DNA of 64,000 nucleotides from a virus (IMGVR_UViG_3300020577_014401:45993-109992); one strand, 5' to 3'; counted from the stretch's first letter, positions 4,829-63,706 are shown. The notes: generated by a model not told the origin, from the sequence alone. A program made the numbers and translations.

Positions 4829-5743
4829 ATGGAATACAAACTCGTCGTGAGACGCAAAGGAGTCGGAGACACAGTGGCGATCTCGCCCTTGGTGCGGGAT
4901 CTTCACCGTTTCAGACCGGATATCCGGATATCCGTCGAAGGCACGTTGGCTTCGGAAATTTTCAAACACGACCCGAGAGTCTCGACCTGGTCCGGAAACG
5001 GACGGGAAGTTGTGATCGACTACAAGCCGACTCACGATCGGGCTCGGTTCGACAAATCCGCCAGGTACCTGCTCGCCGGACTGGAAGACTTTAACCTCCA
5101 GACCGGCCTCAGTGTCCCGGCCGGCGATCCTAGACCCGAGCTCGTCCTGCTCGACGAGGAACGACCGGAACCGTCGGCCTATCCTTACATCGTCCTGGCT
5201 TCCGGTGTGAAACTGGACATGCCGCTGAAGCGGTACCCGCATAACCGTTGGGCCGAACTGGTGAGGCTCGGTTCGGCTCTGGGTTGGAAATTCCGACAGG
5301 TCGGCCAAATCCACGACGGCAGGTTGCCGCATATCCAGGAAGCGATTCCTGGCGCCGACAACCTTCTCGGCAAGACATCGATCAGGCAGTTGTTCCGCGT
5401 GATCTCCGGGGCGGCCGCCGTGGTCTGCCACGTCTCGCTGCCGATGTTGATCGCGTCGGCCTTCCGTGTCCCGTGCATCGTTCTCGGGGGCGGGCGGGAG
5501 AACCCTTGGCTGTTCGCCGACATGGGAGTCGACTATCTTCACACCATCGGCGAGCTCGGGTGTTGTCAGCTGCACGGCTGCCATGCTTGTTTCGCCAAAC
5601 CGGCCCACGACGGAGCCTATCCTCCCGGCAGTCTTTGCGCCGATCCGGTGGAATGCGAGAACGGGTCCGCGGTCGGGCGGTGCATGACGCTCATTGAGCC
5701 GTCCGAGATCGTCGATCGTCTGAGCGTACTCGTCCGACCCTAA
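4829..5743 (+). CDS. GT9-family (ADP-heptose heptosyltransferase-like) glycosyltransferase
   Basis: GVGDTVAISPLVRDL, KRYPHNRW, LLGKTSIRQLFRVISGA, C-terminal Cys cluster ending CMTLIEP. Alternative GTG start at 4823. Confidence 0.8.
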   Translation: MEYKLVVRRKGVGDTVAISPLVRDLHRFRPDIRISVEGTLASEIFKHDPRVSTWSGNGREVVIDYKPTHDRARFDKSARYLLAGLEDFNLQTGLSVPAGDPRPELVLLDEERPEPSAYPYIVLASGVKLDMPLKRYPHNRWAELVRLGSALGWKFRQVGQIHDGRLPHIQEAIPGADNLLGKTSIRQLFRVISGAAAVVCHVSLPMLIASAFRVPCIVLGGGRENPWLFADMGVDYLHTIGELGCCQLHGCHACFAKPAHDGAYPPGSLCADPVECENGSAVGRCMTLIEPSEIVDRLSVLVRP

Positions 5744-5794
5744 AATCTCACCTTATGCACGGCATTATTACTTGCGGACGAATACGTCGTCCGC
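5741..5794 (+). promoter_or_regulatory. Promoter-like motif TAAA-N16-GGCATTAT followed by an 8-bp hairpin
   Basis: Same spacing and architecture at 42849, 58723 and 63650. Confidence 0.5.
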
Positions 5795-5834
5795 GAAGGG
5801 GCCGCCTTCTTGTTAGCGGTCAGGAGCACGATCG

Positions 5835-7091
5835 TTGAGCACACCGATTCAAGATCTGATGGACGACGTCGAAGCGTGCATGGACGTCGGCAGTGTGGCG
5901 TACATCCTCGGCCCGCCCGGCTGCGGCAAGACCGCGGCCATCTCCGCCTTGGCCAAGAAGCGCGGCGGGTTCTTCGCCGCCATCGTCGGATCGATTTCCG
6001 ACCCGACCGACATCTCCGGGTTTCCCGTGGTCACGCAGGCCGAGCACTCCGATTCGGCCGGGCGAAAGACGCCGTCCCTGAAGTTCGCCCCGAGAGACTT
6101 GCTGGTCCGTCTCAATGATGAGGGTGGCGTCCTGTTCCTCGATGAACTGACATCCTGCCCACCGGCGACCCAGGCCTCGCTGCTCACCGGCATCTGCGAT
6201 TGGCGATTCGGCGATTTCCAGCTGGACCGTCACAGGGTGGCGATCGTCGCCGCCGGCAACCCGGCCGATATCGCGGCCAACGGTCAAGAGCTGGCCGACC
6301 CCATGAACAACCGGCTCGAGCATTTCGAGTTCCCGGTCGATTCCTCGGCGATCTACGAGTGGTGCTCGCAGTTCCCGGGCTATTGGGGCGACCCGCCGAA
6401 GGTGGGGTTCATCAGCCGGCACGGCGAACGGTTCATTTCGCCGGAATACCTGCTCCGGGCCCGATCGGCCGTCGCCGGGTACATCCGCAAGAACACGAAG
6501 GCGTGGTTGGACGAGCGATTCGACAAGAATTCCTCATCCAAGGATTCGTCGAAGGACCGAGTCAGCCCGGCGTGGCCGAGCCCGCGGTCTTGGGGTCGAG
6601 TCGCCAACCATCTGGCGAAGGCGCTCGACCAGAAGAAGTCGCCGCTCTCGGCCATGCGGCGAATCACGGCCGCCATCGGTCACGCGCAGGCCGTTCAGTT
6701 CCAAACGTATCTGCGGGAAGTCGACCTGCCGGATCCCGAGATGCTGCTGGCGAATCCGGACAAGTACAAGCCGACCGGCCGACTCGACATCGATTTCGCG
6801 ACAACAATGTCGGTCATCGCCGCTCTCGAGTCGAACGTCACCGGTGACCGCTACGTGGCTTCCTGGAAAATCTGCCGGACGGCTGTCGAGGACAAGGGCG
6901 AAGCCGGGCCGGCGTACGAGGCCGGAATGGCGGCGGCGATCCGCTTGTCGAAGTTCCTGAAGCGGCAAACCGTCGAAGGGAAGAAGCTGTACGAATCGGG
7001 CAGCGACCTGAACAAGGTCATCCTCGATTCGCATAAGCTGTCCAAGCCGTTCCTGAAGCTGATCAAGGAAGCCGCCGGGGAGCTCTCATGA
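5835..7091 (+). CDS. MoxR-like AAA+ ATPase
   Basis: Walker A GPPGCGKT, Walker B LFLDEL, AAGNP, NNRLEH, WPSPRSW. AGGAG RBS before the TTG start. Confidence 0.85.
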   Translation: MSTPIQDLMDDVEACMDVGSVAYILGPPGCGKTAAISALAKKRGGFFAAIVGSISDPTDISGFPVVTQAEHSDSAGRKTPSLKFAPRDLLVRLNDEGGVLFLDELTSCPPATQASLLTGICDWRFGDFQLDRHRVAIVAAGNPADIAANGQELADPMNNRLEHFEFPVDSSAIYEWCSQFPGYWGDPPKVGFISRHGERFISPEYLLRARSAVAGYIRKNTKAWLDERFDKNSSSKDSSKDRVSPAWPSPRSWGRVANHLAKALDQKKSPLSAMRRITAAIGHAQAVQFQTYLREVDLPDPEMLLANPDKYKPTGRLDIDFATTMSVIAALESNVTGDRYVASWKICRTAVEDKGEAGPAYEAGMAAAIRLSKFLKRQTVEGKKLYESGSDLNKVILDSHKLSKPFLKLIKEAAGELS

Positions 7092-8488
7092 GTTCGGAAA
7101 AACAGTCGTCCTCGGCCGAGCCCGCGGACTGGGAGGTTTCTGACAAGGCCAAGGAGATTTTCAGCCTGGCCCGCACCGCCATTCCGCTTTACTGGCCGTT
7201 CTTGACCGCGGCGGCTTATCGGTTGGTGCCCCGCTGGACTCCACTCGTGCCGACGATGGCGGTCGACAAGTGGTGGAGGCTCTACCTCAATCCGAAGTTC
7301 GTGGAGACGAAAACGCCGCCCGCCCTCGCCTTGCTGATTGTCGGTCATGAGCTGCAGCATCTCCTTATGCAGCACCATTCCCGGTTGATGGAGTACCGCG
7401 ACCGTTCGCTGATCATCAACGGGGTGGAGCACGATTTCGCCAACATCTGCAACGATCTGGCCATCAACTCGTCGCTGAAGCAATTCGCAGCGACGGGGAT
7501 CGCCTATCGGACCCAGGTGTCGGCGAAGCCGGCCGGCAAGCTGGAGGCGCCTGTCGAAGCGATGTACCCGGAGAACTTCGTCGACAAGCAAGGCAACAAG
7601 TTTCCGAACGGATTGATCTCGGAGCGGTACGCCGAGCTTTTCGAGAAGAACGCCCAAGCGAAACCGAAAAGTGGAAAAGCGGGCGGTACCGGCAAACCGT
7701 GTTCCGGCCAGTGTGGTTCGGGCGGCGGTCAACAGGCCGGCGACTGGGAAGACAAGGGGGACGCCGACCCGGACAAGCCCACCACGGGTGTGACGAAAGA
7801 AGAGGCGGATGTGCTCGCCAGGCACACGGCCGAAGCGGCACGGGAGCAGGCGCAGAAGCACCGCGGCACCGTGCCGGGCAACATGGAATTGTGGGCTGAA
7901 GTCCAGCTCAGCCCCCCGAAGATCGATTGGCGGAAGCAGTTGGCCCCCATCGTTCGGAAGGGGTTGAACTGGGCGGCCGGCCGGACCAACTACTCGTTCT
8001 CTCGACCGAATCGGAGAGCGATCGCTTCCATGTCGAAGGTCGTCCTCCCCGGCATGTATTCGCCGAAGCCGAAGTTCGTTGTCGCCCTCGACACCAGCGG
8101 GTCGATGGGAAGGAAGGATTACGCAATCGCGTTCTCGGAGTTGAAGTCCGTACTGGCGACTTGCGGGATCCCCAAGATCCCGTTCTTCTCCGTCGACGCC
8201 CAGGCGTATGACATCCAGATGATTTCCAAGTTGGAGGACATCAAGCTCACCGGCGGCGGCGGGACGGACATGGGGCTGGCCGTCAAAGTCGCCTCCGAGA
8301 TCCCCGGCATCAGTCTGATCATCGTGCTGACCGACGGGGTCACCGATTGGTGCCCGCCGCCCCCGAACGACATCCGTGTCATCATCGTTCTCACACAGAA
8401 GGAGACGGAGAGCTACCCCGCCCCGTCGTGGGCGACAGTGATGGAAGCATTCGACGAAAAGAGAAAACCCGACCATGATGACGATTGA
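7088..8488 (+). CDS. DUF2201-type putative metallopeptidase + VWA domain protein
   Basis: TMAVD, HELQH (HExxH), NDLAIN, MIDAS DTSGSM, GGGGTD, VLTDG. Coupled to the AAA gene by an ATGA overlap. Confidence 0.85.
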   Translation: MSSEKQSSSAEPADWEVSDKAKEIFSLARTAIPLYWPFLTAAAYRLVPRWTPLVPTMAVDKWWRLYLNPKFVETKTPPALALLIVGHELQHLLMQHHSRLMEYRDRSLIINGVEHDFANICNDLAINSSLKQFAATGIAYRTQVSAKPAGKLEAPVEAMYPENFVDKQGNKFPNGLISERYAELFEKNAQAKPKSGKAGGTGKPCSGQCGSGGGQQAGDWEDKGDADPDKPTTGVTKEEADVLARHTAEAAREQAQKHRGTVPGNMELWAEVQLSPPKIDWRKQLAPIVRKGLNWAAGRTNYSFSRPNRRAIASMSKVVLPGMYSPKPKFVVALDTSGSMGRKDYAIAFSELKSVLATCGIPKIPFFSVDAQAYDIQMISKLEDIKLTGGGGTDMGLAVKVASEIPGISLIIVLTDGVTDWCPPPPNDIRVIIVLTQKETESYPAPSWATVMEAFDEKRKPDHDDD

Positions 8489-8530
8489 AGCGGCTCGCAA
8501 AATTCAGTCGTCGTGGGTATCATCAACTCC

Positions 8531-8803: not shown

Positions 8804-8826
8804 ACTGGAGAGAGGATTTCCGCATC

Positions 8827-9207: not shown

Positions 9208-9703
9208 ACCAGTCGGGGCGCTCGACGAGATCTTCGTCGGGTGCGCCTCCGGGGTCGTGACCGGGGCCGTTCGAAAGCAATTCGAATCGGCCCTTGTCCG
9301 CAAGGAAGATGGACTCGCCAAGACCGCGGCGGCCGTCTGGATCACGGACTTCCTGCTGAAGGAACTCCCGGACAAGGCCGCTGGAATTTGGTTGATGGCC
9401 GGCGGTGGTTTGATTCAGGAGCCATCCGAGAAGCTGGTGGGCCGACTATTCGACAGCCGGGTCGACGATCCGTCACCGATCCTGTCGATCTCCAGCGGGC
9501 GCTACGTGGCAATCACGGGATTGCCGTTTCTGTTCGATTTGTCCGAAGGATGCAAGTTGTCCGGACCGAAATCGGACGTGTTCGAGACGCGGGTGTTCAA
9601 CCTGCGCATTCTGATCAGAAGCTGCCTTGAAAGGGTCAAGAAATGGACGAGCTCGCAGGCCGGGTCTGGGGAGACCCGGAAAGTCCGGCCGTCTGCCTCT
9701 TAG
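9191..9703 (+). CDS. Hypothetical protein (start uncertain)
   Basis: Fills the operon gap; plausible codon usage. Confidence 0.5.
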   Translation: MPTSSEPVGALDEIFVGCASGVVTGAVRKQFESALVRKEDGLAKTAAAVWITDFLLKELPDKAAGIWLMAGGGLIQEPSEKLVGRLFDSRVDDPSPILSISSGRYVAITGLPFLFDLSEGCKLSGPKSDVFETRVFNLRILIRSCLERVKKWTSSQAGSGETRKVRPSAS

Positions 9704-10350
9704 CTCTCGCCATCGACCGACATTGGGAAACCGACGGCCAGGGTCGACTGCTCTGCATGAACTGGCTGCCGCAGACCTGGCACCAAGAAATCGTCCAAGA
9801 CACCGGCTCCGAACCGCACCCGCGATGCCTCGACCGGCTCGGTGCGGCTCTGGCTTTGTGCAACAACCCGGACGAGTATTACCACTCCGTGCCGGGGTTT
9901 CGGGACATCTGTTCCGGCCTGGCGTCGGATTGGTTCGACTCCCGAGTCGATCAGCACCTGACGACCGACGAGTTGCTGCGCGGGCTGGTCGAAGCGCACA
10001 TGATCCATCCTCCGCACGAGACGGAGAAGTTCTCCCCGCAGGTCGTTCGCTACGTCAACATGGTGGCCCGTCACGACGGTTTCTCGAAACTGCCTGAACC
10101 GATCAAATCGTTCGGAATCCCCGCCGACCCCGGTGTCGACTGGGGTAGTGATCTGTCCGGCGACGAGGAACTCTTCGACCTGGCCGCCGGTGCGGAGGAA
10201 GACCGCCAGCAAGACCTGATCGATTCGCTGAGTTCGTTCCTGCTCGACCTGGCCGACCGGCTCGGCAGGCTGCCTTTGAAACACATCAAGAACGCCAAAT
10301 CCGTGGCGGATGACATCCTCAAGAGGGTGCCACGAATTCCGGCCGAATAG
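9643..10350 (+). CDS. Hypothetical acidic protein
   Basis: 235-aa ORF in the operon with plausible codon usage. Confidence 0.6.
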   Translation: MDELAGRVWGDPESPAVCLLALAIDRHWETDGQGRLLCMNWLPQTWHQEIVQDTGSEPHPRCLDRLGAALALCNNPDEYYHSVPGFRDICSGLASDWFDSRVDQHLTTDELLRGLVEAHMIHPPHETEKFSPQVVRYVNMVARHDGFSKLPEPIKSFGIPADPGVDWGSDLSGDEELFDLAAGAEEDRQQDLIDSLSSFLLDLADRLGRLPLKHIKNAKSVADDILKRVPRIPAE

Positions 10351-10384
10351 CCGGATATCGCCGCGGGGAAAGGATTTCAATCCA

Positions 10385-13042: not shown

Positions 13043-14595
13043 CGTTTTCCCTTCATGAACGTCATCCCAACGTCGCTATCGGCGCCGCCGGGGTGTTCGG
13101 ATTGTTGAATCTTCCGCCGTTTCCCGACCAGGCGGCCTGTCCGTCGTGCCTGGGGCCTTGCAAGATCGACCCGGCCCAGGAAGGCGGGGCCTGGTTGTCA
13201 TGCCGAAAGCCGTCCTGTTCCTGGGAAGGTGACCACTTCGAATACTTCCAAGCCAGGACCAAGATCTCGGAGATTTCGATGGCGATCAACTCGATCGCCA
13301 AGAAAGACGTCCGGGTCGCGCCAGGCGCCGATAACGCGGCTGTGGTGCGATCGTACCAGAAGAGGCTGCGCACCCGGAAGAGCTTCCGTGAACTGTCTTT
13401 GAGAATGAACGCCAGAGCTTCAACCGGGGTAGGCGAGGCGCACGCCGTTCTCGGGCTCGCGGACCAACCGCATTCTCCGCCGTACTGGTGGTCGATTTCG
13501 GTCGGTGAACTGGACGACATCCTCGGCCCGGATGTGTTTCCAGCCACTTCCGCCGACCGCCGCTTGGGACTGCCGGCGCGACACGACCCGGCGTCGGTGG
13601 CCGTGGTCGTGCCGACGTACGACCAAATCGGACGAGTCTCGGGGCTCTGGGCCGCGGCCGGGTGCGCGGAACGGGGCGGCCGGGTCGACGTGGATTGGAG
13701 GTGGAGAGGGCTCCACGACTTCCCTGGCGGCGTCGGGCTGCTCCACTCGGCTTCCAGCCAGGTGCCGGCCTGGGGCGGCTGTGGGTTGATCTGGAGCGAT
13801 CCTGGGCCGGCTCTGAGACTGCACGCCGATCGCCGCAGGCACGCGTCAGACAGGCCCCCGGCGGTCATCCTGCCGCCGCACCATGCTTTGGATATCGCCT
13901 CCATCTCCAGGACGTTGCCGGCTCGGAAATGGGTCGCCCTGGTCGACAAGTCCATCGACGCCCATTCCGCTGCGGTGTTCAAGCTGTGCTCATCAGTTTC
14001 AGCGATGGTCCGTCTTCTTCCGGACGACAAGCCTAAGCTGTGGACCACGACTTCCGCCGGTGTGGAGCTGGTGGCGAGGGCCGCATCATGGCAGGATCGC
14101 ATTGGCGACCTGATTTCCGGTTTCCAGCCTGGACACCGGTTGGCGTCTTTCTTGGTGGAGCTGGGGTGGAACTCCGATCTCGAGGCCAGGTGTTTCCCGA
14201 GGTGGACGGCGGAGACGCGAGCCAAGGTGGCCGACTCCTTGGGCGCTACGGAGAGGGTGAGGTCGGTGCCGATTCGGAAAGGTCTGACGATCGTTGAAGC
14301 CGACGGTCTCTGGGTGTGGGAGGAGAAGAACATCGTCGTGTCGGATGTCATCCTCGACCAAGTACGATCGTACCTCGACGCGAACGGAGCCAAGCGGCAC
14401 AAAGGGCTGATCCTGCACAAGGGATTAGTCCACCAGTTCGACACGAATCGGTTTCGCGAGGACCCGTCCGCGGCCGTCGAGACGGCGCTTCTCGAGGCTG
14501 GCGTCGCCGACCCGCCGTCGTTCCACCCGTGTCTGTCCGGCTTGGTGGCCGACATTGTGATGCACTTCAACAAGATCCGGAACTCGGCCGAGTGA
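13033..14595 (+). CDS. Hypothetical protein with N-terminal primase-like zinc finger
   Basis: CPSC..WLSCRKPSCSWEGDHFEYF resembles CHC2/primase Zn-binding domains; VVVPTYDQIGRVSGL resembles the primase core. Confidence 0.5.
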   Translation: MSSSFSLHERHPNVAIGAAGVFGLLNLPPFPDQAACPSCLGPCKIDPAQEGGAWLSCRKPSCSWEGDHFEYFQARTKISEISMAINSIAKKDVRVAPGADNAAVVRSYQKRLRTRKSFRELSLRMNARASTGVGEAHAVLGLADQPHSPPYWWSISVGELDDILGPDVFPATSADRRLGLPARHDPASVAVVVPTYDQIGRVSGLWAAAGCAERGGRVDVDWRWRGLHDFPGGVGLLHSASSQVPAWGGCGLIWSDPGPALRLHADRRRHASDRPPAVILPPHHALDIASISRTLPARKWVALVDKSIDAHSAAVFKLCSSVSAMVRLLPDDKPKLWTTTSAGVELVARAASWQDRIGDLISGFQPGHRLASFLVELGWNSDLEARCFPRWTAETRAKVADSLGATERVRSVPIRKGLTIVEADGLWVWEEKNIVVSDVILDQVRSYLDANGAKRHKGLILHKGLVHQFDTNRFREDPSAAVETALLEAGVADPPSFHPCLSGLVADIVMHFNKIRNSAE

Positions 14596-14635
14596 GCCGA
14601 TATCCGGCTATCTGCTTTCCTGAAAGGAGGAGACC

Positions 14636-14977
14636 GTGCTCTCCACCATGATTCTGTCGCTGACCTTGATCGGTCAGCCCGCGTCGCCGTCGGGTCGGCT
14701 GGACAACACCGCATCTGGGGCGGCGGCTGCTCCCGTCCGGAAGTCCGGACCCACGAAAGCCAGTCTCGACAACCGCTATTCCGCGAAGAAGACGACCGCC
14801 TACTGCGTGCTCACGCCACCGAACCGATGCCTCCGCAGCGTGTGGGAGATCCGATCGGACGGGCCGCTCACCAACCCGTACGGCGTCGTATGGGTGAGAT
14901 TGTCGAGCTGGTCCGACCTCAATCCGGTCCAGCTCAAGTCCATCACCGATTACGAACGAAACCGCTACCGTCGCTGA
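14636..14977 (+). CDS. Small exported protein
   Basis: Strong RBS AAAGGAGG; hydrophobic N-terminus MLSTMILSLTLIGQ. Confidence 0.65.
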   Translation: MLSTMILSLTLIGQPASPSGRLDNTASGAAAAPVRKSGPTKASLDNRYSAKKTTAYCVLTPPNRCLRSVWEIRSDGPLTNPYGVVWVRLSSWSDLNPVQLKSITDYERNRYRR

Positions 14978-18190: not shown

Positions 18191-18403
18191 CGAGCAAAAT
18201 AGGACTATTCCTCTCCTAATCCATGAACTAAGTGAGGAATGCCTCATTCTGACAATTGTTCATGAGTAGGGTGCTCGTTCCGTCATGTTGTATTCACAAC
18301 ATAGACGTCATCCTTCGGAGAATAGGATGACTGACGTCATCCTATTCTCCTCAGGAAAAATAAGAAACACGCCCGGCCGCTGCGCGGCCTCGGCGTGTTT
18401 CTT
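18191..18403. other. AT-richer hairpin cluster (candidate ncRNA or replication origin)
   Basis: Perfect 15-bp inverted repeat at 18317-18350, 12-bp IR at 18362-18403, nested stems at 18191-18277. Confidence 0.6.
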
Positions 18404-18405
18404 GG

Positions 18406-18432
18406 GGCGGGCCGCCAGCGGCCCGCCTTTTT
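18406..18432 (+). terminator. Rho-independent terminator
   Basis: GGCGGGCCGC-CA-GCGGCCCGCC followed by TTTTT. Confidence 0.75.
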
Positions 18433-18464
18433 CTCCACCAAACCGGAAGAGAGGTGCCACTACG

Positions 18465-18638
18465 TCCGAACTGACCGAAGGCGCGCTCAACGAGCACCAA
18501 GCGACGCCCGACCGTTCCGAATTGATCATCAGCGCGCCGAAGAAGAAGCGCACACGAACCGACCGTTCCGAACTGAAGAGCACCAAGCGCGCCGGAACAT
18601 TCTGTTCCAAGTCCGAATTGACCATCCGTCCCGAACTG
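18465..18638 (+). repeat. Degenerate tandem repeats with a TCCGAAYTGA core, about 51-bp period
   Basis: Core at 18465, 18516, 18567, 18612 (partial copy at 18630); spacing 51, 51, 45, 18. Confidence 0.65.
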
Positions 18639-18683
18639 TTGCCTCCGAAGTGGCCGAAGTACGTATCCAAGGCTGTGGTTCCG

Positions 18684-19574
18684 ATGCGCAAGAGCAACGG
18701 TGCGGGCGCATGGTTGGCACGCCAGATTGTTGCACACACTTACACGCAAAAGGCTTACGGCAATAAGGTCAATTTCGACTTGCTTAACGACGATGAGAAG
18801 TTCGCCTGCGCCGCGTCGATGTGGACCAGGGCCGTTTCCGTCATGCAGTACAACGGCACGGGCTGTGGCTCCTCCGCCAAGGCGGAGCGGATGGCGCGGC
18901 GCATGTACGGGTGCTATGCGCCCGGGTACAAGTTCGGTTCGCTCTGGCATGAACGCCCGACGTGGGACCTGTGCAAGCACGAACTCTGTCCGTACTGCTA
19001 CGCCCGTCGCGTGGTCAACATGTTCAAGGATCTCGCCAACGCGTTCAAGAATCGCCCCGAAGGCTCTGAGATCTGGATCTCGGCGTTCTACACCTTCGAC
19101 AATCGGAAGGAGTTCGCGAAGAAGCTCTGCAAGATCCGGCCGGCCTGCGCGGCGGCTTTTTACCTTCCGACCGGTCAGACCGACGGCGACGACGGCTGGA
19201 AGATCCACGGCGTGATGATGACCGACGACCCGGAGAAGTTCCGGACTCGAAAGTACAAGCGACGCATCTACAATTCGAATCAGATCGCCAGGGCGCTGGC
19301 GATGTGGATGCGTTACCCGCGGCCGTGGTATGCGAGGGGAGCGGTCAAGACCGCTCAGCTCATGGCCCATGTGTTCGCGTCGCTTCCCGACGGCAAGCAT
19401 CGTTACTCGACGTTCGGCGCGGCCCGAGCCGATTGCCGTCCCGGTTGCTCGTTCATGGACTGGAAGGCGTATGACGCGGGTGTGCCGCAGGATGTGATCG
19501 AGAAGTGGGAGCGCAAACGGGCGGATATCCGGCTATCAACTGGTACTCATCAACAGGAGTCGCATGAGGCGTAA
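18684..19574 (+). CDS. Divergent rolling-circle replication initiator homolog (Rep_1, pC194/pUB110-like) with degenerate HUH motif
   Basis: KAERM..GC, CKHELCPYCYARR, WKIHGVMM, MRYP and KHRYSTFG lie in the same order as Rep_1 motifs. The frame is open from 18285, so the start is uncertain. Confidence 0.6.
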   Translation: MRKSNGAGAWLARQIVAHTYTQKAYGNKVNFDLLNDDEKFACAASMWTRAVSVMQYNGTGCGSSAKAERMARRMYGCYAPGYKFGSLWHERPTWDLCKHELCPYCYARRVVNMFKDLANAFKNRPEGSEIWISAFYTFDNRKEFAKKLCKIRPACAAAFYLPTGQTDGDDGWKIHGVMMTDDPEKFRTRKYKRRIYNSNQIARALAMWMRYPRPWYARGAVKTAQLMAHVFASLPDGKHRYSTFGAARADCRPGCSFMDWKAYDAGVPQDVIEKWERKRADIRLSTGTHQQESHEA

Positions 19575-28046: not shown

Positions 28047-28071
28047 CCGGATATCGGCGAACGACAGGAGT

Positions 28072-36735: not shown

Positions 36736-36737
36736 TA

Positions 36738-39913: not shown

Positions 39914-39955
39914 TATCCGGATATGATGTGCTCAAGGCACACCGAGGTATCGACC

Positions 39956-49187: not shown

Positions 49188-49367
49188 ATGAATCAGGAAC
49201 AGATCGGCAAAAGCCTGGCTTTCGAACTCGGGTCGGCTGTCGAAGTCGTCAAGTACGCGTACGAGCAGCCGACCGAGGCCGCCTGCGAACAGGTGCTCAG
49301 CAAACTCACGCCCGATCACATCGAACTGGTGCAACGGTATCAGGCCGCCGTCAACCAGCGAAACTGA
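49188..49367 (+). CDS. Small hypothetical protein (59 aa, below the ORF-track cutoff)
   Basis: MNQEQIGKSLAFELGSAVEVVKYAYEQP...QRN*. AAGGGG RBS; TTGATC-N18-CATAAT upstream. Confidence 0.55.
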   Translation: MNQEQIGKSLAFELGSAVEVVKYAYEQPTEAACEQVLSKLTPDHIELVQRYQAAVNQRN

Positions 49368-49406
49368 TCGTTGGCCGGACGCACCTGACGCCGTGGAGCC
49401 CCGGTT

Positions 49407-51968
49407 GTGGCTGAACCTGTACCGTACGCGCCGGCCGCCCCCGGCGCTTTCAACCCCCAGCTCCCCGGACAACCGGCCCCTAACCAGGCCATGCCCGGGT
49501 TCGGGGGTTCGTTCGCACCCGGGGCCAATTTCAATTTCGATCCCCTCTCCGGCATCAACGCCCGATTGAAGGCTCCGGCCGGGACCCAGTCTGCACCTCC
49601 GGCCGCCCAGCAGCCGCAAATTCAACAGCAGTCGCCACCATCGACCTCCATGCGTTCGATTGGTGAAGACGCCGCGAATCGGTTCCTGTTCGGCGGCGGC
49701 CGTCCGCTGTCGCCGCCTCCGGCTGCTGGCCCGTCGAACGGCGTGTTTGACCCCGAGACCGGCGCCGGATTCGTTCCGCAGCCTCAGAACGCTTTCGGGC
49801 GATGGGCCGACCGCCAACTCAATTCCGTCAACGACTGGATGCTGGGTGGTCAGCAGGAAGCCAGGGATCTCGTCAATTCGTCCTCGCCGAGTGAGTTTCT
49901 CGGGCGAGCTTGGAATGCACTCCCCAATGATCCGAAACTGCCCAACACGTTGGGCGATTACGCTGTCACAGCCGCGAACGGTCTTCCGTTCGGCCCCAAG
50001 GATATCCGCGGGGCCGTCGACCGTGTCGGCGAATCGATCGACCCTGAGTTGTACGGGATCCTCAAGAACACCGGTCGCGGGGTCGCCCAGAACATTGGTG
50101 ACCGCTTGGAGCGGTCCGGCGATTACCGCGCAGCCAGGACAGGCGTCAACGAGATCGCCGATCATCGTCTCAGTCTGACCGACCTCTATCTCGCCAAGAC
50201 TCTTGGGAAGCGACTCGGTGCCGCCGGCGCCAGGACTGCTCTCGCAGACGCAGCCCCGATGGTGACCCGTCCGGGTGTCGCTGGGAAAATTCCCAATGTC
50301 GGGGCCGCTGCTCCGGGTGCCGCTGGAAAAATTCCCAATGTCGGGGCCGCTGCTCCGGGTGCCGCTGGAAAAATTCCCAATGTCGGGGCCGCTGCTCCGG
50401 GTGCCGCTTCGGAAGCTGCACAAATCGCTTCCGCTCAACCCGGTGGCCTTTGGTCGAAGGCCCGCGGTTTCGCCAAGGGCCTTGTTGCCAACGAACCGGT
50501 TTTCGGTGTCGGGGCTGCCACGAATCTCGGGCGTGGGGCCTTCAACATCAGCCGCGGCATGTACCACGGGGTTCGCGGCATGCCCGGGGCCGCAGGGAGT
50601 TTCGCGACTGGTGCCAAACAGATCGTCAGGGTTCCGTTTCAATCGTTTGTGCCGGCGGCGACTGGATCGGCGTTGGCGCAAGTCGGCGAACAGACCGATG
50701 CTCCCGGCGCTGGTTCCGATACCAATCTGTGGATGGCTGAGTTGAGGACGAATCCGATTCGCATGGTCGGTGACGCTTTCGGGGTCGGCGCCAAGACGCT
50801 AGGCGCCGGCAGTTCGTCGACGCCGAACGCCGGGGAAGTGCTCTCTCAGCACGCCCGCAATCTTGGACACGCCGGTCGGATGGCCATCGACAACTTTCCG
50901 AAATTCATTGATCATTTCGGGACTGCCGCCCGGGATCTGATCAACCAGGGCAACGGTATCAGCGGTCCCGAGGTGCAGCACCGCGAGCTCACCAACGAGT
51001 ACAACCGGTTGGCCCCAGGCATCGGCGCCGCCGACAGTGTGATGCCGTACGGGATCGGCGGTATGGCGTGGCGGCAGGGCCTGATCGACCCGATGGCGGA
51101 AAAGGCCCGCGGTATCGATCTCAGGACTCAACCTGGTCTCGAAACCGCTTACGATGAACTCGCCAGGCGCAAGGCTCTCGAGCGGATCACTGGCGAGAGC
51201 GGCATGCCCCCGAGCGTTGTCGATTTCGCCAACAAGACTCTGGGGGCGCCCCGCAGCCTTCCGATGCCGTCGGTGGATTCCCAAGGCCGGCCCGTCAGGG
51301 CCAAACTCCCGTTCCCGACGCAAAGGGACATCGCTGCCGCGTCCGAATTGGCTGGTAAGGACCAGCGTGGTTTCGACAGTCTTGTCGGCAGCCACATGTC
51401 CAGGACGGCGGACGGTTATCAGGGCGCCCAGCCGGCTGCCATGGTTCCTCAGCAGCCTCAGCAGCCTCAGCAGCCTCAGCAGCCTCAGCAGCCTTTGAAC
51501 CCGGCGGTGAAGAAGCAGGTCGACAACATCTTGCAATCTGCTCTTCCCAAGACCGGCGACGGGTCCGCCGTGCCGCCCGAGCAGATTTCGCAAAACGTGA
51601 AATCGTTCATCGAGCAGGCTGGAGATCTGACCAGTTCTCTCAGCCAGGTCGAGCAGATGCCCCCGCCTGAACGCGGGCCACTCGGTCAGTATTGGCACTC
51701 CTTGCCGTCCGGGTCGAAGGTTCTGGCCATCGCCGGCCTTTCCATCACGGCCATTTCGGCGCTTCGTTCGATGTTCGGCGGCGACGATGGTGACGAGGAA
51801 GGCTTCCTCAGCCGCGTTCTTCCGTACCTTGGGCTGGGGGCCGCGGCGTGGGGTCTGGGCGGGGGTACGATCGGCTTCAGCCGTGAGAATCTTCCCGAGA
51901 TGCAGAAGTACAAGAATCTCGGCAACGCCATTGGAGCCCAGTTCGGATCAGGGCAGTTGTTCAACTGA
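49407..51968 (+). CDS. Large Gly/Ala/Pro-rich putative virion protein with C-terminal TM hairpin
   Basis: Low complexity, internal tandem repeats, two hydrophobic segments near the C-terminus. Confidence 0.7.
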   Translation: MAEPVPYAPAAPGAFNPQLPGQPAPNQAMPGFGGSFAPGANFNFDPLSGINARLKAPAGTQSAPPAAQQPQIQQQSPPSTSMRSIGEDAANRFLFGGGRPLSPPPAAGPSNGVFDPETGAGFVPQPQNAFGRWADRQLNSVNDWMLGGQQEARDLVNSSSPSEFLGRAWNALPNDPKLPNTLGDYAVTAANGLPFGPKDIRGAVDRVGESIDPELYGILKNTGRGVAQNIGDRLERSGDYRAARTGVNEIADHRLSLTDLYLAKTLGKRLGAAGARTALADAAPMVTRPGVAGKIPNVGAAAPGAAGKIPNVGAAAPGAAGKIPNVGAAAPGAASEAAQIASAQPGGLWSKARGFAKGLVANEPVFGVGAATNLGRGAFNISRGMYHGVRGMPGAAGSFATGAKQIVRVPFQSFVPAATGSALAQVGEQTDAPGAGSDTNLWMAELRTNPIRMVGDAFGVGAKTLGAGSSSTPNAGEVLSQHARNLGHAGRMAIDNFPKFIDHFGTAARDLINQGNGISGPEVQHRELTNEYNRLAPGIGAADSVMPYGIGGMAWRQGLIDPMAEKARGIDLRTQPGLETAYDELARRKALERITGESGMPPSVVDFANKTLGAPRSLPMPSVDSQGRPVRAKLPFPTQRDIAAASELAGKDQRGFDSLVGSHMSRTADGYQGAQPAAMVPQQPQQPQQPQQPQQPLNPAVKKQVDNILQSALPKTGDGSAVPPEQISQNVKSFIEQAGDLTSSLSQVEQMPPPERGPLGQYWHSLPSGSKVLAIAGLSITAISALRSMFGGDDGDEEGFLSRVLPYLGLGAAAWGLGGGTIGFSRENLPEMQKYKNLGNAIGAQFGSGQLFN
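50271..50408 (+). repeat. 42-bp coding tandem repeat x3.3 (PGAAGKIPNVGAAA)
   Basis: CCGGGTGCCGCTGGAAAAATTCCCAATGTCGGGGCCGCTGCT units. Confidence 0.95.
51447..51494 (+). repeat. 9-bp coding tandem repeat x5 (PQQ)
   Basis: CCTCAGCAG x5. Confidence 0.95.
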
Positions 51969-54880: not shown

Positions 54881-55150
54881 ATGCGTCGCCTTCTCGTCAT
54901 TTTCACCCTGGCGATCGCCGGCCTCGCCGTGACCGCCGACCAAGCCAGCGCCGGCCCGCTGCTCCGTCGATTCCTCGGTACCGAACGCTCGACCTCGGTC
55001 AGCCGTACCCGGACCTACTCGTTCGGCGGCGGGTGCGCGAACGGCAGCTGCGCTCGCAGTTCTTCGACCACGGCTTCGGCGTCGTCCAGTGTGGCGAAGC
55101 CGGTCGCTCAGCCGACCCCCAAGTCCAAGGATGCTCCGAAGAAGCAGTGA
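54881..55150 (+). CDS. Small secreted protein
   Basis: Signal peptide MRRLLVIFTLAIAGLAVTADQASA, then GPLLRRF..GGCANGSC. Confidence 0.7.
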   Translation: MRRLLVIFTLAIAGLAVTADQASAGPLLRRFLGTERSTSVSRTRTYSFGGGCANGSCARSSSTTASASSSVAKPVAQPTPKSKDAPKKQ

Positions 55151-56262
55151 CCTCGACCGAGGCTGCCACCTTGGAACGCGTCGATTATCTGATCGTCGGC
55201 TCAGGGCTCACCGGAGCCACGATCGCCAGAATGTGCTCGGACGCCGGTCTCGATGTCAAAGTCGTGGACCGGCGTCGTGTCGTTGGCGGGAACGTCGTCG
55301 ACCAGCTTCACCCGTCCGGCATCCGTTTCAACGTCCACGGTCCACATTACTTCCGCACATCGTGCGATCGGATTTGGGAGTTTGCGACTCGCTTCTCCGA
55401 ATTCCGGCCGTTCGCTGCTCGGGTCACGACGCTCATCGACGGCGCTGAAGTGCCGTGGCCGGTTCACTCCGAGTTCATTGAAAAGTTGGCTGGCACGGGC
55501 TGGAAGCCGGCATTCAACCGGACGCCGACCAATTTCGAGGAGCAGGCTCTTTCGATCATGCCCCGCGAAGTCTACGACAAGGCTGTGAAGCCGTACACGG
55601 AGCTGCAGTGGGGGGTGCCGGCCACGTCGTTGTCGGCGTCGTTGGCGCGGCGGTTCGACATCCGTACCGACGGCGAGATTCGGTTGACCCCGAATGCCAA
55701 GTACCAAGGTTTGCCGATATCCGGATATCAGTCGTGGATGGACGAGATGCTTCGTGGCATCCAGGTCGAATGCGACCACGACCATTTGAGCCGCCGTGAG
55801 ATCGAGCCGAGGCGAAAACTGGTGTTCACCGGGCCGGTTGATGAATACTACGGTTTCGATCTTGGCCGGTTGACCTACCGTAGTCAAAGCCGCCACCACA
55901 CGTTTCACTCCGACAAGGAGTACGTTCAGTCGACGATCCAGGTCAACAATCCGTCCGGCCCTCACATTCGTTCGATCGAGTGGAAGCACCAGATGGCCCC
56001 GGCTGAGGCGGCGTCGATCCGCGGCACTTTGACGACAACCGAGACTCCGTACTTCCCGACCGATCCTGACAAATACGAGTACCCGTTCCCGGACACCACG
56101 GGTGAGGCTCTCTACGATCAATACAAGAGACGGGCCGCTGCCGACACGGGGCTGGTTTTCGCTGGAAGATTGGGTCTGAACAAGTACCTCGACATGGACG
56201 CTTCGATCGCGGCTGCGATGAAAATCGCTGAACAACTCATCAATGAGGCCAACCGTGGCTGA
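55147..56262 (+). CDS. glf: UDP-galactopyranose mutase
   Basis: IVGSGLTG, GGN, HGPHYFRT, YT..QWG, YQGLP..GY, FTGPVDEYY, L.YRS, YP, GRLG.NKYLDMD. Confidence 0.92.
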   Translation: MTSTEAATLERVDYLIVGSGLTGATIARMCSDAGLDVKVVDRRRVVGGNVVDQLHPSGIRFNVHGPHYFRTSCDRIWEFATRFSEFRPFAARVTTLIDGAEVPWPVHSEFIEKLAGTGWKPAFNRTPTNFEEQALSIMPREVYDKAVKPYTELQWGVPATSLSASLARRFDIRTDGEIRLTPNAKYQGLPISGYQSWMDEMLRGIQVECDHDHLSRREIEPRRKLVFTGPVDEYYGFDLGRLTYRSQSRHHTFHSDKEYVQSTIQVNNPSGPHIRSIEWKHQMAPAEAASIRGTLTTTETPYFPTDPDKYEYPFPDTTGEALYDQYKRRAAADTGLVFAGRLGLNKYLDMDASIAAAMKIAEQLINEANRG

Positions 56263-58827: not shown

Positions 58828-60135
58828 ATGTTCAACGAATATCGGGTCTGCACTCACGACGGTGAGTTTCACGCTGATGACGTGTTCGGTGTCGCCGTCT
58901 TCCAGTTGCTGGCGGAACTGGAGTCCAAGCCCATCGAGATCCGCCGTTCCCGGAAGCCGCTCGACCTGGAATGGGCGAACGTGCTGATCGACGTCGGCGG
59001 CAAGCTCGTCGACCCCGAGCCGTTCCGGAACGATCAAATCTGCCTGGACCACCACCAGCCGGGCGGCGCCGGAAGGCGGGACACCGGAATCCCGTACGCG
59101 TCGTTCGGGCTCGCTTGGAGGGCGGTCGGCCGTCGGTTGATCGAGAATCTGCTCAAAGGCGGTCGATTCGAGAACATCACCCAGGCCGTTGTCACTCGTG
59201 TGTTCGACGAGGTCGACGGCACTCTGGTTGCGGCGATCGACGCCGTCGACAACGGTTTGTGGAGGGATCGCATCGACAGCGAGCACGGCGAGGTGCCGCA
59301 GTTCTCGCTGTCCCAGGTGATCTCGGAAATGAACCGGCCTTGGAACATGGACCGACCCGGCGGGCCCAAGTTCATCGGTGGTTGCACGTTCCAGGAAGCC
59401 GTCAATTTCGCGTGCGGGGTTCTGGTCAAGCGCATCTTCCGAGTGTCGGGGGCGATCGCGGCCGAGGCCCTGGTCGAAGCGGCTTACGTCACGAGGCACG
59501 ATCCGAGGATTCTCGTTCTCGGGGCGGGTCTTCCGTGGATGAAGTGTCTTCTCGAGAAACTGCAGGACAAGGAAGTCCTGTTCGTCGTTTACAAGGGTGA
59601 CGCTTCGACTCCGGTGTACATGCAGGCCGTTCCCAAGTCGCTTGACGACAAGACCCCACGCCTGAGGTTCCCGGACGAGTGGGGCGGGCTGGAGGGCCGC
59701 GAACTCAAAGAGAAGTTCGGACTCTCCGGGATGGTGTTCTGCCACCGACAGGGGTTCATCGCCGGGGCCAAGACTTACACGGATGCCTACGATGTGATTC
59801 GACGGGTCCTGGACGAGGATCGCGAGCGGACTCTGGTCGGCAACAGTCTTTCGTTCTGCGTCGCCGGCATCGTCGATGGTCAAGTCGATGAGAAGAAGGT
59901 CAAGAAGATCCGCTGTTCGTTCCGGGCTCCGTCTGACTTGGAGTCGCTCAAGTCAATGGTGCTCGAGCCGTACAGCAAGGCGTACTGGAGGAATCGACCG
60001 GAGCAGTCTGTCGCTTTGGCGATTCGCTTTTATGAGCAGGGCAGGCTGGAGTTCACCGGCGGCCACTATTGCCCGGATATCTGGGGCGACTACGAGCTCC
60101 GGTTGCTGAAGGATGGTCCGGCCGACAACGACTGA
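58828..60135 (+). CDS. MYG1-family (DHH-type) exonuclease with C-terminal extension
   Basis: THDGEFHADD, DVGG, DHHQ, YASFGLAW, IDAVDNG, FCHRQGFI. Confidence 0.88.
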   Translation: MFNEYRVCTHDGEFHADDVFGVAVFQLLAELESKPIEIRRSRKPLDLEWANVLIDVGGKLVDPEPFRNDQICLDHHQPGGAGRRDTGIPYASFGLAWRAVGRRLIENLLKGGRFENITQAVVTRVFDEVDGTLVAAIDAVDNGLWRDRIDSEHGEVPQFSLSQVISEMNRPWNMDRPGGPKFIGGCTFQEAVNFACGVLVKRIFRVSGAIAAEALVEAAYVTRHDPRILVLGAGLPWMKCLLEKLQDKEVLFVVYKGDASTPVYMQAVPKSLDDKTPRLRFPDEWGGLEGRELKEKFGLSGMVFCHRQGFIAGAKTYTDAYDVIRRVLDEDRERTLVGNSLSFCVAGIVDGQVDEKKVKKIRCSFRAPSDLESLKSMVLEPYSKAYWRNRPEQSVALAIRFYEQGRLEFTGGHYCPDIWGDYELRLLKDGPADND

Positions 60136-60150
60136 CCGCGAGGTCGGGTG

Positions 60151-60170
60151 AAGGGGCGGATGCCCCTTTT
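60151..60170 (+). terminator. Rho-independent terminator
   Basis: AAGGGGC-GGAT-GCCCCTT followed by TT. Confidence 0.6.
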
Positions 60171-60217
60171 CCTTAGCTCTTCTGGATTCGTTCGTGCCGA
60201 TCGACTAGACTCTCAAC

Positions 60218-61518: not shown

Positions 61519-61527
61519 GGTGGAACC

Positions 61528-62052
61528 ATGCCCGCGAAGAGCAAGGCCCAGTTGAGGAAATTGTTCGCCCTTGAAGCCGAAGGGAAGGTCCCGGAAGGGA
61601 CCGGTCGGCGGTGGGCGAGGCACACTCCCGACATCAAGAAGCTCCCCGAACACGTCCGCAAGAAGCAGGCGTTTGTCGCTTCTTTCCTCCTGCGATGCGC
61701 CAAGTCCGGTCTGACGACTCCGGAGCAGATCGCGGTGGAGGCGGAGAAGTACGCGGCTTGCCTGGAGAAGGCCGCCGAGGAGAGCTCCCTGGGCTCGTCT
61801 CTTCTCGGGCATGTCGCCGGGCTGGGCTCGCTCGGATTGGCGGCCGGTGTCGCTGCCCCGATCGTGGCCGGTTACGCCGGGGGCCGGCTCGCTGGTTCGG
61901 CGCACAACCAGATCGACACCGATGACGCCGAGTCGCTGCGGATCGCCGCCCTGGCCAACGCGTACCGGCGTCGCGCCGCTGAGGCGAAGTTGAACGCCCA
62001 GGTCCGCGACTTTGTCGCGACCGATCCTTCCAAGTACACGGTGCTTTCGTAA
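61528..62052 (+). CDS. Putative virion protein (MPxKSKAQ..KKLPE N-terminal motif, TM segment)
   Basis: N-terminal motif recalled from phage small proteins; KQA/KYA/KAA motifs; Gly-rich TM. Confidence 0.7.
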   Translation: MPAKSKAQLRKLFALEAEGKVPEGTGRRWARHTPDIKKLPEHVRKKQAFVASFLLRCAKSGLTTPEQIAVEAEKYAACLEKAAEESSLGSSLLGHVAGLGSLGLAAGVAAPIVAGYAGGRLAGSAHNQIDTDDAESLRIAALANAYRRRAAEAKLNAQVRDFVATDPSKYTVLS

Positions 62053-62468
62053 TGGGCCCCACTCCGAAATACCGCGGCCGGGAACTGGATGTCGACGGGG
62101 CCAGGCTCACCGCCAGGGCCCACCCGGACGGCTACCCGACGCGGGAAGAGCATGCTCGCAATGCTTTTCTCGAGAAGGAGCGGAAAGCGGCGGCGTCCGA
62201 GGTGTTTTACTACCGGTCCCAATTCTTCACTCTGCCGACCGAAAATGCGAAGTATGAGCAGGTGATGGACTGGATCGCCAACGGCCAGGCCATTCTCAGA
62301 CACCAGGAGCGGCACCGGAACGAAGACAGGACATGGGACGTGTGGGTGGAGTATCTTGATGTCCGCGGTTACGTGCCGACGGACGAAGAGATGTCCAGCA
62401 ACATCCCCGCGAAATCCGGACGGCCCGGGTTTGACTTGAACACCATTCTTGGCGGATTCGGGAGATGA
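62052..62468 (+). CDS. Hypothetical protein
   Basis: TAATG coupling. Confidence 0.65.
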   Translation: MGPTPKYRGRELDVDGARLTARAHPDGYPTREEHARNAFLEKERKAAASEVFYYRSQFFTLPTENAKYEQVMDWIANGQAILRHQERHRNEDRTWDVWVEYLDVRGYVPTDEEMSSNIPAKSGRPGFDLNTILGGFGR

Positions 62469-63652
62469 CTGTGGGCAAGACCAACTGCAAGCTCGCCATG
62501 AGCCCGGCCGAGTCCGATGCTCTGGAGCGAATTCTCCGTATCGCCGGTGTCGGCATTCTCGGCGGAGCCTCGCTCCGCACCGGCATCGAGTCGCTTCGTC
62601 AGTCGAACCCCCGGTACGAGCCCCCGAAGATTCCCGATCCGGTGATCGTCACCATCCCGAGGCCGGTCGACTCGGCTGAGCCTCCTTCGAAGTTTCCGGC
62701 GCTGAACCGCATGAAGATGCTCCCGCCGGCCCCGCATGCCAAGGGCGAGGCCCCGCCCAAATCGGCATCGTGGACCGTGGAGAACACCATCAAGGCTCTT
62801 CCGATGGGGGAGAAGCTCTGGGAGAACATTCCGCAGACGAGTTCGATTCTCGGTCCGGCCAACCCGACGTCCGGCAACGACATCCCTCTCACCTGGGCCG
62901 CCTACCCGCTCGCCGCCGCCGGTGGCACTGGAATCGGGTACGCTCTCTCCGACAAGATTCTGAGGGCCGCGGATCGCCGCCGGGCCCGGTCGGATCTCGA
63001 AGCCGCTCAGCGGGAGTATCAGGACGCCACGATCGGGCGGGCCAGGTCCATTCATTTCCCCGAGAAGTCGGCGGCGGAAATGACGGCCCTCATCGAAGGA
63101 CGAGACCCGGTCGACCCGGTCGTCGCCAGGATCAAGCGCGCGATCGATCGAGCGTACGCTGTCAGCCAGATCGCCGGCAGCACCGGCGGCGGTGGAGTGC
63201 CGAATGCGGTCTCGTCGGCTTTGACTTCGCCGCTCATGCCCTCGCCGGCCCCTGTGGCCAGCTCGATCGGCGCTCCCTCGGCGACTCTGTCGCAACCGGC
63301 GCCGCCGAAGTTGAAGACCACGATGCCGTCCGAGCCGGCGATGAACGGCAGCGGGGCCACCGAGCCGGATGCCATCAAGTCGTCCCAGGACCCGACGTGG
63401 ATGAAGAGGCTCACGGAGTGGATGTATCCCGGGTCCTACCTTGATGACGACGCGCTCAAGGCGCACATGCTGATTGCTGGAGCCGGGGCCGGTCTGGGCG
63501 GTTGGCTGGGCTATAACCATGGTCGAGACAAGGAGACCGCCGAACAGAATCGTCGGGCGATCCGCCGCGTCGACCGGGAGAACGCCTCGGCGATTCCGGC
63601 TCCGATGATCGCGCAGTTCGTGCCCGTTCAGAAGCAGCAGCCGGCCGTGTAA
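62465..63652 (+). CDS. Putative virion protein with repeated Gly-zipper TM modules separated by K-x-A motifs
   Basis: KLAM, KSAS, KSAA; GGTGIGY, GAGAGLGGWLGY. Confidence 0.7.
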   Translation: MTVGKTNCKLAMSPAESDALERILRIAGVGILGGASLRTGIESLRQSNPRYEPPKIPDPVIVTIPRPVDSAEPPSKFPALNRMKMLPPAPHAKGEAPPKSASWTVENTIKALPMGEKLWENIPQTSSILGPANPTSGNDIPLTWAAYPLAAAGGTGIGYALSDKILRAADRRRARSDLEAAQREYQDATIGRARSIHFPEKSAAEMTALIEGRDPVDPVVARIKRAIDRAYAVSQIAGSTGGGGVPNAVSSALTSPLMPSPAPVASSIGAPSATLSQPAPPKLKTTMPSEPAMNGSGATEPDAIKSSQDPTWMKRLTEWMYPGSYLDDDALKAHMLIAGAGAGLGGWLGYNHGRDKETAEQNRRAIRRVDRENASAIPAPMIAQFVPVQKQQPAV

Positions 63653-63706
63653 ATATCCGGCTATCGGTCGTCACTATCCTTGGGAGGCCGGGCATTTTGC
63701 CCGGCC
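63650..63706 (+). promoter_or_regulatory. Promoter-like motif TAAA-N16-GTCACTAT + 9-bp hairpin, with the ATATCCGGCTAT palindrome in its spacer
   Basis: Seen directly in the sequence. Confidence 0.55.

Follow-up and report, generated by a model that had tools for sequence, protein, structure and literature searches.

Dimer-read palindromes that recur every few kilobases, some of them at promoters and others far off or within genes, are a feature of the ParB-parS, Noc-NBS and SlmA-SBS systems. On the IncP plasmid RK2, the KorB-OB system is a dispersed array of a short palindrome that is read by a dimer acting at a distance (PMC11790492). Among phages, dispersed identical palindromes in many copies are already known in a few cases, such as the Cluster O mycobacteriophages, and for none of them is the reader or the role known. 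Cluster O carries a 17-bp dyad repeat (TGTTCGG-NNN-CCGAACA; 34 copies with invariant arms in phage Corndog), the closest published analogue of the element described here. Some of its copies lie in short intergenic spacers and others within genes, they are mostly conserved in position among relatives and absent from the host and from other phages, and the authors inferred a dimeric binding protein and doubted a transcriptional role (Cresawn et al., 2015; PMC4351075). Cluster A mycobacteriophages carry stoperators, which are found in many copies, mostly in the short intergenic spacers of long operons, and differ in sequence between related phages; they are asymmetric, oriented with transcription and read by the monomeric immunity repressor of these temperate phages (PMC9283540; PMC6550527). 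Here we describe a 14-bp palindromic word that is scattered over a 64,000-nucleotide stretch of viral DNA (the window), which comprises bases 45,993-109,992, i.e. the last 64 kb, of the 109,992-bp contig IMGVR_UViG_3300020577_014401 (G000 in the comparisons below). The contig comes from a large, poorly characterised, uncultivated phage, and its array adds to the known cases a cost in rare codons, an even spacing and a turnover of the word among deep relatives.

All nine copies that a first-pass annotation had listed in the window were found where it placed them, three as the perfect palindrome ATATCCGGATAT (4920, 39913 and 55717) and six as ATATCCGGCTAT or its reverse complement (14600, 19525, 46993 and 63653, with 10347 and 28043 in the reverse orientation; Table 1). 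Its estimate that far fewer than one copy should occur by chance was sound: 100 dinucleotide-preserving shuffles gave no match, and the order-4 Markov expectation for the word is 0.00. The whole contig carries 15 copies of ATAKCCGGMTAT, 13 in the forms seen in the window and two in a double variant, ATAGCCGGCTAT; it contains no further sequence within two mismatches of the perfect palindrome, and the same contig sequence reversed contains no match. Ten of the 12 core positions are invariant across all 15 copies, and the G...C flanks present on most of them extend the core to a 14-bp dyad, G-ATAKCC·GGMTAT-C. At the variable pair, five copies have T in both half-sites (T/A), eight are mixed and two have G in both (G/C), as against 5.4, 7.2 and 2.4 expected if the half-sites vary independently, and there is no surplus of combinations that could pair. 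An exact 14-mer scan of viral contigs returned only single chance matches, blastn against a phage collection returned none, and the word is not present in 29 other records of the wider group. A literature search with six palindrome words, this one and those of the relatives described below, matched primers only.

The contig (62% G+C) has 99 genes, as called with a simple codon-usage gene caller of our own; they are tightly packed and 96 of them are on the plus strand. Eight copies of the word lie within predicted genes, where they occupy all three reading frames. ATA and CTA are the rarest codons of the genome (1% of Ile and about 0% of Leu, respectively), with 11 and 10 occurrences among 33,847 codons, of which 4 and 3, respectively, lie in copies of the word. 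When codons were shuffled within genes so that the encoded proteins were preserved, the eight wholly intragenic copies were essentially never regenerated, and the total averaged 5.7 (maximum 8) compared with the 15 observed, the remainder being junction copies. The intragenic copies align codon for codon, without gaps, to their orthologues in the two nearest relatives, G001 and G002; for example, GAT ATC CGG ATA TTC (GDIRIF) on the contig corresponds to GAC ATT CGC TTC TTC (GDIRFF) in G001, and the copy at 4920, which also uses the rare ATA codon, aligns in the same way to both. These copies have thus arisen by substitution and not by insertion. In a hairpin, 8 of the 15 copies would mispair (T.C or G.A at the variable pair), and a search of Rfam with the word gave no match. 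The independent choice of T or G in each half-site, together with the eight hairpin mismatches, points to recognition by a two-fold symmetric protein rather than to a stem-loop. The word is kept by selection on the DNA itself, is symmetric without pairing covariation and is evenly spaced.

The first-pass annotation had described the copies as enriched at gene junctions, and they are: 7 of the 15 are not fully inside a coding sequence, compared with 8.8% of positions (p=1.4e-4). Junction and intragenic copies number seven to eight each. Eight copies lie 2-68 nt upstream of a plus-strand start, usually in the order stop codon, word, about 10 nt, Shine-Dalgarno sequence (SD), start. Of the 57 junctions whose spacer is at least 16 nt long, however, just 7 carry the word. 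The five contacts with stop codons noted earlier were all borne out, as a TAG inside the word (10350 and 28046), a TGA that ends on its first A (39913), an abutting TAA (63652) and a stop 5 nt before it (14595). So was the copy about 30 bp upstream of hldE, since the copy at 19525 ends 27 nt before the start (19564) of an hldE-like gene that encodes PfkB and cytidylyltransferase domains. The spacer around the copy at 63653 had been called promoter-like; a consensus scan found no sigma-70-like promoter there, and what follows the copy instead is a terminator-like structure, a 9-bp G+C-rich hairpin with a T-rich tail (63686-63706) that lies 22 nt past the word and closes the gene run 62052-63652. 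The helicase-primase junction, which carries a copy at 28043, has no such word in G001, G002 or G003. Junction copies fall at boundaries between core and contig-specific genes in 4 of 8 cases, against about 26% of junctions, which is not significant.

Spacing also sets the array apart from a random scatter. The distances of 4-12 kb given in the first-pass annotation correspond to gaps of 4.3-11.9 kb, with a minimum of 4253 bp and a coefficient of variation (CV) of 0.33, and 100,000 random placements produced none that was equally even or had so large a minimum gap (p<1e-5).

A search with the helicase led to a clade of uncultivated phages, three whole records of which (G001, G002 and G003) are syntenic with the contig; helicase homologues that are 75% and 65% identical to it occur on long contigs. 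The DNA polymerase, taken as the only query, led to no loci. G001 and G002, with 45-50% amino acid identity, are the nearest relatives that we compared. G003 (about 30% amino acid identity, 40% G+C) carries a different, 18-bp palindrome, TTGATAGA-YR-TCTATCAA, in 10 perfect copies and three to four more with one mismatch. Nearly all of them are intergenic, the TGA of TTGATAG often doubles as a stop codon, and two copies precede orthologues of genes that bear the word on our contig (a 484-aa gene and the hldE-like gene). Four further genomes were recruited by a search with a RuvC-like resolvase, the sole gene common to the contig and G003 but not found in G001 and G002, and each has a palindrome of its own: AGTATT-SS-AATACT in 19-23 copies (G004), TGAGTAA-YGCR-TTACTCA in 58 copies, 52 of them outside genes (G005), AWAGATATCTWT in 39 copies (G006; its core AGATATCT occurs 42 times against 2 expected) and TTACGC-W-GCGTAA in 14 copies (G007). 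All five array-bearing relatives, G003-G007, are syntenic with the contig at about 30% amino acid identity, and in each of them the reversed-sequence control gave 0 and the enrichment at junctions is significant. Copies are evenly spaced in G004-G007 (CV test, p 0.001-0.008); in G003 the 10 perfect copies do not reach significance (p=0.23), with p 0.006 once the one-mismatch copies are included. A scan of metagenomes with a helicase profile yielded three loci, with no recurrent palindrome in the roughly 20 kb available for each. In G005 (L145), many palindrome copies that have no SD behind them are accompanied by a second, semi-conserved hairpin, such as TTCGGCGTAGATTACAAATACGCCGCC (e.g. 49364-49420, 99669-99725 and 84960-85010).

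The share of copies that lie within genes falls as the word becomes longer, from 69% in G006 (27 of 39 copies; 12 bp) through 36-47% for words of 13-14 bp to about 10% for the 18-bp words. This is as expected if sites are wanted anywhere at intervals and their placement is limited by coding constraint. Conservation in position could be followed in one pair of genomes that share a word, G006 and G008, the latter a 33-kb fragment with 75% nucleotide identity to part of the former. For all six G006 sites in the aligned 30 kb, including three intragenic ones of which one is beside an indel, the core (W)AGATATCT(W) is preserved in G008 at the orthologous place, whereas only 14% of aligned 8-mers are fully conserved (p ~9e-6). 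Such words are thus held in place by purifying selection and are not mobile. Conservation of the sites in homologues, which the first-pass annotation had proposed as a check, has a divided outcome: it is not seen against the nearest relatives G001 and G002, in which the system is absent, and it is seen at all six sites in the pair G006/G008.

The array resembles the Cluster O repeats in its invariant inverted-repeat arms, its many copies over the genome and its mix of intergenic and intragenic sites, and the positional conservation reported for Cluster O has its counterpart in the G006/G008 word, whereas the nearest relatives of G000 carry no word. The word sequences share no similarity, and the lineages differ, being Mycobacterium siphoviruses in one case and, in the other, large phages that have a T4-like replisome and encode an RNA polymerase of their own. 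Furthermore, a single word serves all five Cluster O genomes, whereas in the present group the word is private to each deep branch and missing from the nearest relatives; the even spacing and the rare-codon cost seen here were not reported for Cluster O. With 15 dispersed copies of a 14-bp palindrome 4-12 kb apart, the array also looks like those of the ParB/parS type (sites of 13-16 bp). Unlike ParB/parS and KorB-OB, it comes without the ParB_N (CTPase) domain (PF02195), which is absent both from G003-G007, two of which are complete, and from Pfam scans of 97 of the 99 predicted contig proteins, and no KorA-like partner was found. The OB operator, TTTAGCSGCTAAA, shares a TAGC half-site core with the GG variant of the word (ATAGCC·GGCTAT), but is 13 bp long with an odd centre, and nothing seen here points to sliding or silencing from the word. 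As with stoperators, one short word recurs over the genome and differs between relatives; unlike stoperators, it is a dyad, stands upstream of genes in both orientations and occurs in a family in which no tyrosine integrase was found in the five relatives G003-G007.

On these observations, we put at about even the chance that the array is a set of docking sites for a phage-encoded, homodimeric, sequence-specific DNA-binding protein or enzyme with a chromosome-wide role. That a dimer reads the word, that this reader comes from the phage and what the array is for are points that we infer. A monomer would recognise a single GATAKCC half-site and tolerate either T or G at K, and the array would serve a chromosome-wide DNA transaction by loading, anchoring or marking the genome at regular intervals, on a logic like that of KorB-OB, Noc-NBS or SlmA-SBS arrays though with a reader other than ParB; the junction copies may in addition affect read-through of the single long co-directional gene array. 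The even spacing, the conservation of copies within genes and the drop in the intragenic share as words become longer favour a chromosome-wide role over gene-by-gene operators. The first-pass annotation had suggested a binding site for a dimeric protein, either a global operator or a parS/matS-like site for genome organisation, packaging or recombination. The dimeric part of that suggestion fits the independent half-sites, the selection within genes and the dyad words of the relatives. A literal parS/ParB system finds no support, as there is no ParB_N, and the operator, organiser, packaging and recombination roles are inseparable by sequence.

A bolder and more tentative extension, to which we give distinctly less than an even chance, is that large virulent phages of one clade, which encode an RNA polymerase of their own, use a hitherto undescribed 'chromosome landmark' system, in which a private palindrome, placed at regular intervals and even across coding sequence, co-evolves with a reader other than ParB. 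The array would then provide regular loading, anchoring or cutting points for replication-recombination or packaging, and the divergence of the word between relatives would amount to a specificity barrier during co-infection. Any explanation has to accommodate three constraints, namely the cost in rarest codons, a spacing more even than chance, and the pattern in which deep relatives change the word and near relatives have lost the system; together they point to a chromosome-wide DNA transaction with phage-specific recognition. The array also offers an experimental handle, with a 14-bp probe, 15 defined sites and relatives that are natural negative controls, and to identify the reader would probably account for a feature that recurs in many phage genomes.

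Several points weigh against the docking-site reading. The junction copies stand consistently between stop codon and SD, most strikingly in G005, as a role in gene expression would also predict, and even spacing is likewise expected for boundaries of transcription units. G001 and G002 lack the word altogether, and neither an enriched upstream k-mer nor an over-represented palindrome turned up in them. No reader protein was found on the contig: in scans of nearly all of the 99 predicted proteins against Pfam or PHROG, no helix-turn-helix (HTH), ribbon-helix-helix or ParB domain appeared other than in the core gene for a sigma-70-like protein and as a weak match in a 102-aa protein. With the contig about 56% complete (CheckV), the reader may be encoded outside it or may come from the host. 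Two of the three products that the first-pass annotation had put forward as binders, those starting at 35908 and 17655, have no DNA-binding domain, and the third (18684) matches no gene call; nor do the small proteins encoded beside copies of the word (g1548, 14636-14977 and 63733-63957) have convincing DNA-binding features. Among the relatives searched, an HTH_3 domain is found only in G004 and DUF3102 in none above cut-off. A T7-type RNA polymerase was not found either, in a search whose control was negative too.

The main rival, in our view a doubtful one, is gene-by-gene transcriptional control; here a dimeric repressor or activator would use the word as a stoperator- or CIR-like operator or roadblock to gate read-through or initiation at chosen junctions of the co-directional gene array. 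It would account for the junction enrichment in all six array-bearing genomes, for the stereotyped layout of stop, word, SD and start, for the 52 of 58 G005 copies outside genes and for the placement of the G003 word upstream of orthologues of two word-bearing genes (the 484-aa and hldE-like genes), and the family does bring transcription genes of its own, for an RNA polymerase beta-like protein and a sigma-like factor. However, positions deep in genes are taken by seven to eight of the 15 copies on this contig and by 27 of the 39 in G006, three of the intragenic ones being conserved between G006 and G008, and the intragenic share tracks word length as if coding constraint alone limited placement. 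Of the 57 junctions here with at least 16 nt of spacer, only 7 carry the word, and the word-free G001 and G002 agree with this phage in gene order and in transcription genes. An immunity repressor in particular is unlikely, given that no integrase was found in the five relatives, two of them complete.

We think it unlikely that the copies are sites of programmed cleavage, nicking or junction resolution during recombination-dependent replication or pre-packaging debranching, possibly with the resolvase mentioned above. Even spacing would suit sites that are reachable from anywhere on the chromosome, and the phage has SbcCD-like and helicase genes. The resolvase gene (41238-41900; Table 1) is the sole contig gene whose distribution matches the presence of arrays among the eight genomes compared. 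The six array-bearing genomes, G000 and G003-G007, encode a type-A RuvC (GIDLGTNCG...YEDVKF...DNIAD), whereas a canonical RuvC (GVDPGG...LEDVGY...HDGLVDA) occupies the same syntenic position in the array-free G001 (86949-87569) and G002 (84002-84556), which makes this a non-orthologous replacement of one Holliday-junction resolvase by another. Type-A RuvC is, moreover, 46-75% identical between genomes in which other proteins share about 30%. Yet this very gene was the query by which four of the six array-positive genomes were recruited, and the two array-free ones, G001 and G002, count as one loss only. At least 25 further records, 58-205 kb long, have a type-A RuvC as well; in these, the words of the G000, G006 and G004/G005 types (three of the six, as tested) were never multi-copy and recurrent palindromes appeared only at the control rate (20-kb windows, a comparison of low power). 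As the protein that specifies the word, it was rejected: RuvC similarity does not parallel word similarity, with the 75% identical proteins of G000 and G004 going with unrelated words. Symmetric cutting by a resolvase, furthermore, requires no palindrome. We regard type-A RuvC as a weak lead and not as a demonstrated partner.

A host protein, such as a nucleoid protein, a global regulator or a component of defence, is a rather improbable reader, although such a reader would fit the failure to find one in the phage, the differing words of relatives that differ in G+C content (40-62%), which would mirror different hosts, and the two word-free relatives, whose hosts could lack the factor. Being AT-rich and written in the rarest codons of a genome with 62% G+C, the word is unlikely to be one that abounds in the host, like Chi or an uptake sequence, and both of these are asymmetric. 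A Chi-like hot spot is weakened on the same grounds: words of that kind are asymmetric, depend on orientation and are common in the host genome, and the word here is a palindrome of the rarest codons.

Very little credence can be given to the word as a target of DNA modification, e.g. by the D12-class adenine methyltransferase whose gene (39050-39913) ends on the copy at 39913. The perfect word does contain two GATATC hexamers and a central CCGG, and 13 of the 21 GATATC hexamers of the genome lie in copies, but a methylation site of 6 bp does not explain why a 14-bp word is enriched, GATATC is lost in the 40% of half-sites that are G/C variants, and relatives with other words have no D12 methyltransferase. 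Just as improbable is a promoter for the transcription machinery of the phage, or an RNA hairpin or processing site, even with the word placed just upstream of the SD, an RNA polymerase and sigma-like factor encoded by the family, and words in G003 and G005 that could form 7-bp stems. The asymmetric variant stands upstream of genes in both orientations, two copies leave just 2 and 11 nt to the start codon that follows, and many copies are intragenic (47% here, 69% in G006). Word-free genomes carry the transcription genes as well, G002 both the RNA polymerase beta-like and the sigma-like gene and G001 the sigma-like one. At the RNA level, the stem here would have only four to five A-T-rich pairs, 8 of the 15 copies would mispair, no compensatory changes were seen, single changes in G003 and G005 being uncompensated as well, and Rfam gave no match. 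Selfish miniature mobile palindromes spread by insertion, akin to repetitive extragenic palindromic (REP) sequences or miniature inverted-repeat transposable elements (MITEs), would be identical, short, mostly intergenic and private to each genome, as the words are, but this reading is largely refuted by the gap-free codon alignments of intragenic copies, by the G006/G008 sites that stay in place while their flanks diverge, and by the even spacing.

Table 1. Copies of the palindromic word, and the resolvase gene, in the window (numbered from the first base of the window)
Feature	Coordinates	Strand	Sequence and context
Copy 1	4920-4931		Perfect palindrome ATATCCGGATAT, flanks G..C; codons 16-20 (DIRIS) of GT9-like gene 4874-5743
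Copy 2	10347-10358		ATAGCCGGATAT; TAG is the stop of gene 9643-10350; 26 nt to start at 10385
Copy 3	14600-14611		ATATCCGGCTAT; 5 nt past stop of 13093-14595; 24 nt to GGAGG-led start at 14636
Copy 4	19525-19536		ATATCCGGCTAT; final codons (DIRLS) of 18327-19574; rare CTA codon; 27 nt before hldE-like start 19564
Copy 5	28043-28054		ATAGCCGGATAT; TAG is the stop of DnaB-like helicase gene 26334-28046; 23 nt to primase start 28078
Copy 6	39913-39924		Perfect palindrome; first A is the final base of the TGA stop of D12-class N6-adenine DNA methyltransferase gene 39050-39913; 31 nt to start 39956
Copy 7	46993-47004		ATATCCGGCTAT; within methyltransferase-like gene 46729-47664, frame 0, ISGY
Copy 8	55717-55728		Perfect palindrome; within gene 55033-56262, frame 0, ISGY
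Copy 9	63653-63664		ATATCCGGCTAT; abuts TAA stop of 62471-63652; terminator-like hairpin 63686-63706, then start 63733
Type-A RuvC-like resolvase gene	41238-41900	+	Sole contig gene matching array presence among eight compared genomes

Outside the window, one copy of the word ends 11 nt before the ATG of an 831-aa gene (contig 1982-4477) whose product has no match in Pfam, PHROG, PDB or Atlas. Another, at contig 7997, lies inside a 22-bp perfect palindrome near the 3' end of a 1251-aa gene (L112:4498-8253), which holds an intein with a LAGLIDADG homing-endonuclease domain (residues ~104-475). The 831-aa gene is the next large gene after a CRISPR-like array at the start of the contig (bases 59-1290; L112:59-1290), which has 17 repeats of about 36 nt (GTGACAAGGCCGTGCAGGGCCTGAAAGAACTGCAAC) with a period of 69-76 and unique spacers; no cas gene is recognisable. 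A search for the host by means of this repeat gave a single match of a 22-nt core, in a coding region of a Rubrivivax metagenome-assembled genome (L193:6427-6448) and not in an array.

The contig has recognisable genes for a primase and a DnaB-like helicase, for a family-A DNA polymerase that carries a UDG domain and for SbcC-like and SbcD-like proteins, together with the hldE-like kinase/cytidylyltransferase, GT9 and GT2 glycosyltransferases and several methyltransferases. In addition, there are genes for a gpA-type large terminase, baseplate proteins and the sigma-70-like protein (PF04539), the last of which is found amid structural genes (contig 35961-36776; L113:17961-18776). In the window, two successive genes that are kept as a pair in G001-G003 encode a MoxR-like AAA_5 ATPase (5835-7091) and then a putative metallopeptidase of the DUF2201 type that has a VWA-like domain (7088-8488). 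The product of 58828-60135 is a homologue of the MYG1 exonuclease (PDB 24ah, E 1.8e-24; Pfam MYG1_exonuc, E 1e-54), which is unusual in a phage, and its gene belongs to a four-gene block without counterpart in G001 or G002. Just past the orthologues of the final genes of the window, several relatives have a giant open reading frame for an RNA polymerase beta-like protein (PF00562), in frames of 683-2874 aa (G002:109452-110879, G003:28963-32055, G004:6762-7823, G006:168754-169812 and G007:121480-123565), so that the contig probably ends just before that gene.

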